From NCBI GenBank assembly GCA_049515895.1, contig JBEKTQ010000021.1, positions 1 through 64,000 on the forward strand: DNA of 64,000 nucleotides, written 5' to 3'. The notes beneath the pieces were generated by a model. The model was not told the origin of the DNA, searched no databases, and saw nothing but the letters and a program-made list of their open reading frames with translations. Positions 13,083-19,021 of the stretch are shown here, piece by piece. This DNA comes from Candidatus Bathyarchaeia archaeon. Lineage in GTDB: Archaea; Thermoproteota; Bathyarchaeia; Bathyarchaeales; Bathycorpusculaceae. Each line of letters starts with the position of its first letter. Position 1 is the first letter of the stretch. A program made the translations under genes and the position numbers.

Positions 13083-13225
13083 AACCGCAAAATCAGATTG
13101 TCGGCTTGGCAACCGCGCTACAGCATTCTACGCGCCGAGTAGTTTCTGCTCATGCAGAATAAGGTAATAAAGAAAACCTTGCCCTACGTGGGCAATCATG
13201 AAGTAGATTCGCGTGAGAGACGGCC

Positions 13226-13414
13226 TCATTCTGCACGTATGAGTAGAAGCGGTTTGGAAGCTTCTTTTTTCATTATTTTTCTTATTTCAACCTTATCGAG
13301 ATCTTCCGCAGTCTTCGTGGTCTCATCATGCGTATTATCTGGGAGAATGAGGTGAATCTCGCCATTTGGAGATTGTTCTCTAATTGTTCGCCAGTTTGGC
13401 AAACATATCACCAT
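13226..13414 (-). CDS. Small hypothetical protein
   Basis: 62-aa ORF with plausible composition, divergent from the candidate ncRNA. Confidence 0.4.
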   Translation of the reverse strand: MVICLPNWRTIREQSPNGEIHLILPDNTHDETTKTAEDLDKVEIRKIMKKEASKPLLLIRAE

Positions 13415-13660
13415 AGAATATACTCTCAGGCTCTTAACTTAATGTTTTTGGCGAAGTGTACTTTGCTTGTTTGCAAAGCAGGCATGCTTAGTTCTGTTTT
13501 CAGAAATAATTGCGTCATTCATGTCAAATTGACAAATTTATGTTAAAAGCTAATTTCACCACAAAAACCTCTTGGACTAAGTTAGCTGGGACAACCCCTG
13601 TTGGTGAGAAAGGAGTTCTTTACAAGACAAAAAACGCGTTCAATTGCCGATTTTTTGTAC

Positions 13661-13676
13661 AAAATTTGTTATATTT
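13661..13676 (+). promoter_or_regulatory. Putative BRE/TATA promoter of the structured ncRNA
   Basis: aaaatttg-TTATATTT ends 22 nt upstream of the first base of the closing stem (13698). Confidence 0.5.
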
Positions 13677-13697
13677 TACCAATACTATTAGAATGGC

Positions 13698-14013
13698 GTA
13701 GGTTGAGGAGCACGCTTTAAAGGCGATGTATCGAGACAAAGAGCGTACCAGTTAAAACAGCGGAAAACTGGTATGCGACTAAGACTCTGTTTCGATGGGC
13801 TGAACATTGGACGCAGTGCATTGAGGCAATGAGCGTGTCAGTCAAAACAGCGAAAGATTGATACGCGGCAAAGACAAGGCTTCGATGGGCTGAACATCAC
13901 TATATGTTGCAGTGAGGCAATGAGCGGTGCAGTCAAAACGGTGAAAGACTGCACAGCGACAAAGACATAGCCTCAATGGACCGCGAATATGTTAAGGCTT
14001 AGACTCAACCTAC
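13698..14013 (+). ncRNA. Unrecognised structured RNA: three tandem ~90-nt units inside a terminal stem with a bulge-helix-bulge motif
   Basis: Terminal inverted repeat GTAGGTTGAG/CTCAACCTAC; units at 13729-13803, 13819-13893 and 13910-13984 have conserved loops and compensatory stem changes; G-U pairs indicate the + strand; a pyrimidine tract follows at 14015. Confidence 0.8.
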
Positions 14014-14322
14014 ACTTCTCTTCAAAACAACTTAAACAACATCATTCTTGGTTCAGGAAAATCACGTTTCCTTCTTACGTTTAGACAATCAGCAATCTAA
14101 TTCTTAATTTACAAGCAGCCTTCAAAGAATTGTTAAAGAATTTGAAATCGAGTTGTATGGCGTAGCGCTGTTTAACGGCGCAAGGCTATTTTTTACTAGC
14201 TAAGAGTAGGTGGTTATGTGGTACGGATTTGGTTAAGATTTGAGTGCAAATCTGGAATATCGATTAATAATCTGTCGCTAAGAAGAAATTGAAAACTTCA
14301 ACACATAAGGGAGGCTCGAAGA

Positions 14323-14565
14323 ATGAAGCAAATACAGGTGTATGTATTGGATTTAAACAAAATAGATGGACGCGGAGATTTTTTATGTCCAAGATGTGGA
14401 AACGAAATTTCTCCTGACGACCCCACTGAAACGGCTTATTCCATTCTTGAAGCAATTGTCAGCAACCACGGTTTGGATGAAATAATAATTCGCTGCAACA
14501 AATGCGAAAGTGAACTCCATTTAACTGGTTTTTCTCTGCTGCAAAAACTGAGCGTACACTTTTGA
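14323..14565 (+). CDS. Small zinc-finger protein
   Basis: GGAGG RBS; DFLCPRCG.EISPDD...IRCNKC.SELHLTGF. Confidence 0.8.
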   Translation: MKQIQVYVLDLNKIDGRGDFLCPRCGNEISPDDPTETAYSILEAIVSNHGLDEIIIRCNKCESELHLTGFSLLQKLSVHF

Positions 14566-18896: not shown

Positions 18897-19021
18897 GTGG
18901 CTGCCAGCTTTCCCAGGTTCACGTGGCCTAAGACCACACTACAGCTGGAAACGGAGCACGGTTTAACTTCTGAGTTCGGAATGGGATCAGGTGGAACCCG
19001 TGCCCTTTGACCGGGAAACAC
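18897..19021 (-). rRNA. rrf: 5S ribosomal RNA, unlinked from 16S/23S
   Basis: Minus strand contains CACCTGATCCCATTCCGAACTCAGAAGTTAAACCGTGCTCCG and ends GGGAAAGCTGGCAGCCAC; length ~120 nt. Confidence 0.93.

Follow-up and report, generated by a model that had tools for sequence, protein, structure and literature searches.

A three-module structured RNA of a Bathyarchaeia archaeon, probably the circular product of a gene of its own

What kind of RNA is specified by three tandem units of about 90 nt at positions 13727-13987 of a 64,000-nt stretch of DNA from a Bathyarchaeia archaeon, and in what form does it leave its transcript? An initial annotation of this stretch (the window; positions 1 to 64,000 of contig JBEKTQ010000021.1) had described three structured units between 13729 and 13984, with all coordinates and all P2 helix sequences right. 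Its limits for the feature were too narrow, leaving out a stem that closes the array, a bulge-helix-bulge (BHB) splicing motif and the circularisation of the product. The gene extends from about 13669 to 14013 on the + strand. We consider it probable that this is a free-standing Bathyarchaeia gene whose sole product is a circular structured non-coding RNA; the biogenesis and the fold of this RNA are both well supported. The repetition is picked up by Tandem Repeats Finder (period 90 nt, 2.6 copies, score 234, 13733-13967), and a 325-nt stretch folds with z = -8.0, a result as good being found in none of 100 shuffles.

To follow the fold among homologues, a covariance model was built from the three window units, as the initial annotation had proposed. 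It retrieved 57 units in 27 loci; two further alignments comprised 123 units from public contigs and 28 from other orders of the class, bringing the total to 208 homologous units, which comprise 182 distinct sequences. Covariation is seen in every helix. Among the 57 units, 93.4% of the cells are paired versus 74.0% in shuffles (none of 500 was as good) and only 26-44% with the 3' partner moved along the sequence. All three alignments behave alike, with 90-93% of cells paired and slid controls at 26-46%. The claim that the loop of P2 pairs with a tail lying 3' of P1, in a 4-bp pseudoknot, is borne out just as firmly: these pairs form in 97-99% of cases (97.3%, 98.6% and 98.2% in the 57, 123 and 28 units, respectively), all four of them show two-sided changes within the 57 units, and the combinations CAGC/GCUG, CGGU/ACCG, CGGC/GCCG, UGGC/GCCA and AGAC/GUCU all occur. 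G-U pairs outnumber A-C mismatches in the helices by 122:24, 318:74 and 58:19 in the three alignments; this excess identifies the + strand as the RNA strand.

The layout originally drawn for the unit holds as a pattern, with one correction: P1 continues through the segments written there as AA(U)G and C-N. P1 thereby gains four pairs, of which three covary and the innermost, a G-C, is nearly invariant, so that the internal loop shrinks to a single A opposite eight bases (GNNNAAGA). An extra C-G pair flanks P1 and leaves a single G between this helix and the pseudoknot. Lengths hardly vary. Each strand of P1 is 12 nt long and P2 has 11 bp; the spacer that precedes the pseudoknot bases has 4 nt and the pseudoknot 4 bp. 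When units of Bathyarchaeia are set beside those of the order Methanomicrobiales (see below), the 11-nt length of P2 recurs in 48/48 and 32/33, that of the 4-nt spacer in 47/48 and 33/33, and that of the 8-nt joining segment J2/1 in 47/48 and 31/33, respectively. The AAGA core of J2/1 is nearly invariant, and invariant unpaired bases cluster at the bend (the single A and GNNNAAGA) and around the pseudoknot (UGC, AAAA, GAA, G and RACA). Helix and loop lengths that stay constant in two phyla point to a precise three-dimensional fold. The compact, bent shape first suggested for the unit is thus upheld indirectly, by the 1 x 8-nt loop and by helix lengths shared by both phyla: the module would bend by about 180 degrees at the internal loop, letting the apical loop reach the tail in cis.

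In the window, module 1 occupies 13727-13806 (+; covariance-model match of 99.6 bits), with P1 at 13730-41/13785-96 and P2 at 13743-53/13766-76. Its J1/2 is A13742, its J2/1 spans 13777-84 and G13798 is the linker; the loop 13754-65 contributes CAGC (13758-61) to the pseudoknot with the tail GCUG (13799-802). Module 2 (13817-13896, +; 100.2 bits) repeats this arrangement, with P1 at 13820-31/13875-86, P2 at 13833-43/13856-66, joints A13832 and 13867-74, linker G13888, and a loop (13844-55) whose CAGC at 13848-51 faces GCUG at 13889-92. Module 3 lies at 13908-13987 (+; 98.1 bits). Here P1 is formed by 13911-22/13966-77 and P2 by 13924-34/13947-57, A13923, 13958-65 and G13979 are the joints and linker, and the pseudoknot, between CGGU (13939-42, in loop 13935-46) and ACCG (13980-83), differs from that of modules 1 and 2 on both strands.

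The flanks of the array are strongly conserved and fold into a BHB motif. A central 4-bp helix (GAGC, 13708-13711, with GCUU, 13997-14000) is bordered by the 3-nt bulges ACG (13712-13714) on the 5' side and AGA (14001-14003) on the 3' side, and beyond it an outer helix h joins 13698-13707 to 14004-14013 by ten of ten possible pairs; all these elements are on the + strand. The pattern was matched by 93 of the 96 distinct arrays with sufficient flanking sequence, and in L164, one of the three negative arrays, a motif with a GGG bulge can be read by eye. Across the 93 arrays the central helix is 99.7% paired, with variants that include GAGC/GCUC, AAGC/GCUU and GAGU/GCUC. The outer helix is 94.9% paired, using many pair types per position, as opposed to 19-51% in shifted registers; the inner helix h', in the register of the precursor, is 95% paired over 3 bp and 59.9% over 7 bp. 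Over 75 arrays the 5' bulge is ACG, AAG, AGG or AUG, and the 3' bulge is AGA in 70. PMC7714728 defines an hBHBh' motif by a 4-bp central helix with two 3-nt bulges on opposite strands and by outer helices h and h', on the exon and intron side, of at least two Watson-Crick pairs each. The locus has such a central helix with its bulges and both outer helices, together with a cleavage-ligation joint seen in contigs and the appropriate host enzymes. Kink-turns (K-turns) were considered at two places and rejected: at the P1/P2 loop the required register is contradicted by the covariation of adjacent pairs, and at the closing stem the loop is explained as the BHB.

Transcripts of the locus were sought among contigs of four metatranscriptome runs (X6, X7, X8 and X13), from four studies, mapped on positions 13500-14200. 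A joint leading from 14002 back to 13714 is present in all four. Contigs of 150, 198, 216 and 146 nt carry it, and two of these are about 99% like the window; the shorter side of the joint measures 28-47 nt, and not a single letter is common to both sides. Loose contig ends show the matching junction in the sequences of relatives. Within each 3-nt bulge the joint follows the second base (cuts at 13713/13714 and 14002/14003), the position at which the endonuclease cuts. Since the joint lies exactly inside both bulges, the product is a 289-nt covalently closed RNA (13714-14002, +). It appears to be cut out and sealed by the archaeal tRNA-splicing machinery. The genome encodes RtcB (PF01139, one gene, E = 2.4e-176) and two proteins with a tRNA-splicing endonuclease domain (PF01974); this pair fits an (alpha-beta)2 enzyme, the type assigned mainly to the TACK group in PMC7714728. 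In the circle, GCUUUAA at 13714-13720 (+), the 5' strand of a stem H2, pairs with UUAAGGC (13992-13998), and the ligation junction becomes the capping loop UUAG (13999-14002). This arrangement is shared by the family: a UYAG loop sits on a 7-bp hairpin that is 92.8% paired in the 93 arrays. Predicted circles measure 106-111 nt when they hold one unit (20 arrays), 192-207 nt with two (69 arrays) and 289 nt with three (4 arrays). The segments 13500-13713 and 14003-14200 had no contig cover in the four runs and were not counted as evidence.

On the 5' side, a TATA-like box (TTATATTT) at 13669-13676 (+), 29 nt upstream of the outer helix, is presumed from its sequence to be an archaeal promoter, and a similar motif is found 27-32 nt 5' of the outer helix in 49 of the 93 homologous arrays.

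The same genome contains a second three-module copy (G000:C1:206149-206460, locus L002), 94% identical to that of the window and equipped with its own BHB. Similarity between the two ends at the RNA boundaries, and the flanks are unrelated. Relatives were found by BLASTN in 21 of 41 related genomes; within the genus, BLASTN detects the RNA in 16 of 24 genomes and the covariance model adds two of five BLASTN-negative genomes that were rechecked. Searches of the class, phylum and order scored 31-150 candidates per genome, which makes their absences soft. With this proviso, the rest of the phylum yielded no match outside Bathyarchaeia, all 7 matching genomes out of 151 belonging to that class. 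A degenerate pattern derived from the alignment matched at least 118 genome-contig stretches (about 20 being expected by chance, by a rough, uncomputed estimate). Among the 80 matches listed, 63 contain modules and are nearly all labelled Bathyarchaeia or Bathyarchaeota, and the remaining 17, bacterial contigs without a module, were taken as chance matches.

The number of units varies: in a set of 91 arrays, two are present in 79, one in 7 and three in only 5, and the one-unit form prevails in other orders of the class. The view of the RNA as a trivalent molecule therefore does not extend to the family. In two-unit RNAs a pseudoknot of type A (CAGC/GCUG) is combined with one of type B (CGGY/RCCG), and the array of the window reads A-A'-B. 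The complete genome G040, from another family, has the module at four loci of C1, as a two-unit array and three single units (275528-275705, 729971-730049, 740184-740262 and 1993931-1994011). One typical two-unit Bathyarchaeia RNA, with a BHB and an adjoining zinc-ribbon gene, occurs in a contig filed under a Limnocylindrales bacterium (L037), which is probably a mis-binned archaeal contig.

The module is also found in a second phylum. A three-unit locus was detected in a complete genome that is labelled Methanomicrobiales and carries mcrA, and a search of this order located the module in 23 of 121 genomes, the three-unit array being the usual form (loci L204-L223, genomes G313-G428). The pseudoknot is here almost always CGGC/GCCG; rare CAGC/GCUG and CGGU/ACCG variants are compensated. 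In the rest of Halobacteriota nothing was found beyond this order, to which all 6 matching genomes out of 151 belong. When the flanks of 20 of these loci were co-folded, neither an evident BHB nor a 3-4-3 motif was seen; the stem that encloses the arrays is long and conserved (GCCUCAG.../...GGGGC), and its internal loop varies. The module is probably the functional core of the RNA, and Bathyarchaeia and Methanomicrobiales would bring it to maturity by different routes.

Genes next to the arrays vary as well, the largest cluster of neighbouring genes comprising 9 of 81 arrays. The lack of a conserved neighbour, together with the presence of a second copy in unrelated flanks, argues for action in trans. 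On the downstream side of 14 of 101 arrays, at a distance of 100-700 nt, there is a gene for a small zinc-ribbon protein, which can face either way. In the window, 14323-14565 (+) encodes an 80-amino-acid zinc-ribbon protein (CPxC...CxxC) that is a distant homologue of the family adjoining the RNA elsewhere. This genome has four members of the family; two adjoin the two RNA copies, and no RNA module was found near the other two. The two RNA-adjoining proteins are distant homologues of each other (pairwise E = 2e-4; 32% of 53 aligned residues are identical, or 21% when the multiple alignment is used). That they are only 32% identical beside RNAs that are 94% identical suggests that the window and L002 copies are old paralogous loci, the RNAs of which have been homogenised or are strongly constrained. 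Over the class, the RNA is present in 4/5 and 3/3 genomes of families f21 and f23 and the zinc-ribbon protein in 0/5 and 0/3; family f6 presents the reverse, with the protein in 4/4 genomes and the RNA in 0/4. As its spread is unlike that of the RNA, the protein was kept as a lead only. A crude scan for small open reading frames with two CxxC motifs downstream of the arrays gave 4 of 95, and missed this family because its second motif is CxxxxC. In Methanomicrobiales, a divergent gene with an RNase III domain is situated 50-140 nt upstream of the array in 8 of 20 loci. Of the 121 genomes of the order, 115 encode such a domain, with or without a detected RNA, and none was found in the genome of the window; RNase III is likewise a lead only, for maturation in Methanomicrobiales.

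Several observations weigh against a gene dedicated to a circular RNA that acts through these modules. Detection is patchy, with 25 of 151 genomes of the class positive (31 of several hundred candidates were scored per genome). The Methanomicrobiales arrays, lacking an evident BHB, imply that circularity may be dispensable for the function of the module. Covariation fits pairing within or between molecules alike, so that the cis geometry of the pseudoknot is only our preferred placement of the pairs. Neither a binding partner nor a ligand emerged, and the neighbouring zinc-ribbon and RNase III-domain genes are each confined to some lineages. Finally, the circle is documented by assembled contigs rather than raw reads, in RNA runs only, and the 90-nt repeats gave inconsistent joints, 13822 to 13733 in one run and 13786 to 13903 in another. 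These last two points, along with the plain long terminal stem of the Methanomicrobiales homologues, would suit an RNA that is linear, with ends shielded by the closing stem, and a circle created by assembly. An artefact of this kind would have had to generate the identical joint in four of four runs, from four studies, with no letters shared by the two sides, and again in relatives; it would also have had to place the joint after the second base of each bulge of a motif kept in 93 of 96 arrays. We judge it quite improbable.

Other explanations concern the identity of the RNA rather than its form. The bent hairpin, the loop-to-tail pseudoknot and a sequence conservation of aptamer strength recall tandem riboswitch aptamers, which might control a downstream gene in cis, and the zinc-ribbon gene found after some arrays would be a target at hand. 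The neighbours are however not conserved (the top cluster is limited to 9 of 81 arrays, and both orientations occur), the RNA leaves its transcript by excision at the BHB and has a TATA-like box of its own, and no riboswitch model of Rfam matches; cis control is thus very improbable. Within this group, the hairpin of the c-di-GMP-II aptamer folds back on itself and brings its apical loop into pairing with a 3' tail beside P1, and purines are conserved at its junctions. The resemblance to it that had been noticed at the outset stands for the architecture (bent hairpin, loop-tail pairing, conserved junction purines) and fails otherwise, since the RNA has no credible Rfam match at E <= 10, to the model of this family or any other, and no K-turn, is not a 5' leader, and is circular and modular. 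Archaeal H/ACA RNAs have one to three hairpins, and an atypical guide RNA of this sort, each hairpin being followed by ACA, would account for the unit numbers, the internal loops and the conserved RACA, an ACA-like triplet 3' of most units. Yet the 1 x 8-nt loop is nearly constant across units and species, leaving no room for varied two-sided guides, and no target-variable two-sided pocket is apparent; the ACA, instead of following P1 directly, stands about 8 nt to its 3' side, and module 3 lacks it (GCGAA); and the apical loop, where a kink-loop (K-loop) would be expected, is taken up by the covarying pseudoknot, there being no K-turn either. An H/ACA identity is hence improbable to nearly the same degree, if by a shade less.

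A little more weight, though still small, goes to a repeat RNA paired with a neighbouring protein, which it would neutralise or by which it would be processed: a ToxI-like type III antitoxin, or a dedicated partner of the zinc-ribbon protein in Bathyarchaeia or of the RNase III-domain protein in Methanomicrobiales. Antitoxin RNAs of the ToxI type are tandem pseudoknot repeats with units of about 36 nt. Tandem repeats that each fold as a pseudoknot are common to both systems, two of the four zinc-ribbon members stand beside the two RNA copies, and the RNase III-domain genes lie close to a good part of the Methanomicrobiales arrays. The units measure 80-90 nt here, however, and belong to a family that is conserved in two phyla and has its own presumed promoter and BHB; no toxin-like gene follows the array, the 80-amino-acid protein downstream being a zinc ribbon and not a conserved endoribonuclease toxin; and in the distributions described above f21, f23 and f6 are in disagreement and RNase III occurs regardless of the RNA. 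Both a cis-regulatory element and a toxin-antitoxin pair were rejected for lack of a conserved neighbour. Hardly any weight can be given to a permuted or disguised known RNA, such as signal recognition particle (SRP) RNA in the manner of Thermoproteus, RNase P RNA or tRNA. The size of about 300 nt and the paired ends would fit, and RF01857 (archaeal SRP RNA) is unmatched in this 100%-complete genome, in which the SRP RNA gene probably lies in an assembly gap. But a normal SRP RNA exists in 18 of 21 relatives, G001, G003 and G011 carrying both RNAs; RNase P RNA is encoded elsewhere in the genome; ARAGORN finds no tRNA in the window; and the unit-to-unit stretches, which offer every rotation of the module to Rfam, matched none of its families. 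SRP RNA was specifically rejected because RF01857 does not match the region, relatives hold both RNAs and the present RNA has two copies, where SRP RNA should be a single essential one. More generally, Rfam 15 gave no family at its gathering threshold for the RNA, the sole match in the window being 5S rRNA, and at E <= 10 the window region and a distant homologue returned chance-level matches only (C0299, E = 2.8; mir-3937, E = 0.25).

The way in which the RNA matures has close precedents. The circularised SRP RNA of Thermoproteus (PMC4731332) reportedly comes from a stand-alone gene with a BHB at the transcript ends, made into a circle by endonuclease and ligase, as we propose here; in that case the gene is permuted and circularisation restores the normal topology, whereas the present RNA belongs to no known family, is unpermuted and consists of one to three repeated modules. 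For tRNA intronic circular RNAs (tricRNAs; PMC4536317) and for archaeal tRNA and rRNA introns and circular pre-rRNAs (PMC12918454), the tRNA-splicing machinery is likewise described as excising a BHB-defined segment and closing it into a stable circle. Those circles are by-products or intermediates of a host tRNA or rRNA, which is not the situation in the window: the 5' "exon" has 16 nt, the 3' "exon" is about 11 nt of stem, and no tRNA is included, so that the circle is the only evident product of the gene.

Put together, a dedicated gene would work as follows. Transcription would start about 25 nt 3' of the TATA-like box, at the foot of the 10-bp end-to-end stem. As sequence and covariation show, this stem, the 4-bp helix and the two 3-nt bulges form the hBHBh' motif; the tRNA-splicing endonuclease would cut within both bulges and RtcB would seal the ends, both enzymes being encoded in this genome. 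The 289-nt circle thus released (13714-14002) would carry the ligation site in the UUAG loop of the new 7-bp hairpin. Its body would consist of three modules of about 80 nt, in each of which a 12-14-bp P1 and the 11-bp P2 meet at the 1 x 8-nt loop, and the putative bend would bring four bases of the P2 loop to the four bases just 3' of P1. Each module may then be a rigid, pre-organised site at which a protein or a small ligand binds, and the RNA would act in trans, on an exonuclease-proof circle whose valency of one to three equals the number of modules.

As to what the module does, a protein partner comes nearest to being favoured, at somewhat below even chances. A small ligand is considerably less likely; a part in RNA-RNA scaffolding or self-assembly is a shade less likely again, on a level with functions of some other kind, and a ribozyme is improbable. 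The sponge, scaffold and ribozyme roles suggested at the outset are thus conjectural; no sign of self-cleavage was seen, in contigs that could not reveal it. A different version keeps the dedicated circle gene and lets its one to three modules serve as riboswitch-grade aptamers, acting in trans as sensors or buffers of an ion or small molecule, or lets loops and tails pair between molecules to build assemblies; the module would have moved between Bathyarchaeia and Methanomicrobiales and be matured differently in the latter, possibly by RNase III. This version is unlikely, without being far-fetched.

A full-text literature search, with subscription journals and supplementary files outside its coverage, found no description of this RNA. 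The maturation pathway, involving BHB, endonuclease and RtcB, is already established; the novelty lies in the RNA family and in how its gene is arranged. If the reading as a gene for a circular RNA is right, the family would constitute a new class of archaeal structured RNA, with a fold outside the catalogued families conserved to the base pair in two phyla where tractable model organisms are few or absent. The locus would also be the first case found of a BHB-excised circle, other than a known RNA, as the only evident product of a gene, and a natural counterpart of the engineered tRNA-intron cassettes used to express circular RNA. At about 108 nt, the one-unit form would offer structural studies a compact natural circle as a scaffold, and the family a test case for the evolution of module number from one to three. 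The question would then be why uncultured Bathyarchaeia and methanogens both need this RNA.

Some minor features of these loci may be recorded. In G040:C1, a member of the zinc-ribbon family (741436-741636) lies 1.2 kb downstream of one of the module loci. Among the 20 Methanomicrobiales loci, a DUF5591 gene is found downstream in 6, and a DUF6908 gene downstream in 5, 4 of which also have the DUF5591 gene. In the window, the roughly 590 nt on the 5' side of the RNA gene (13083-13668) contain only frames of 62-72 amino acids and no convincing open reading frame; two of these frames were scanned and gave no Pfam match, and the part from 13300 onward gave no Rfam match. With no other rRNA or tRNA gene in the 64 kb, the 5S rRNA gene of the window stands alone at 18899-19018 on the - strand (65.4 bits).

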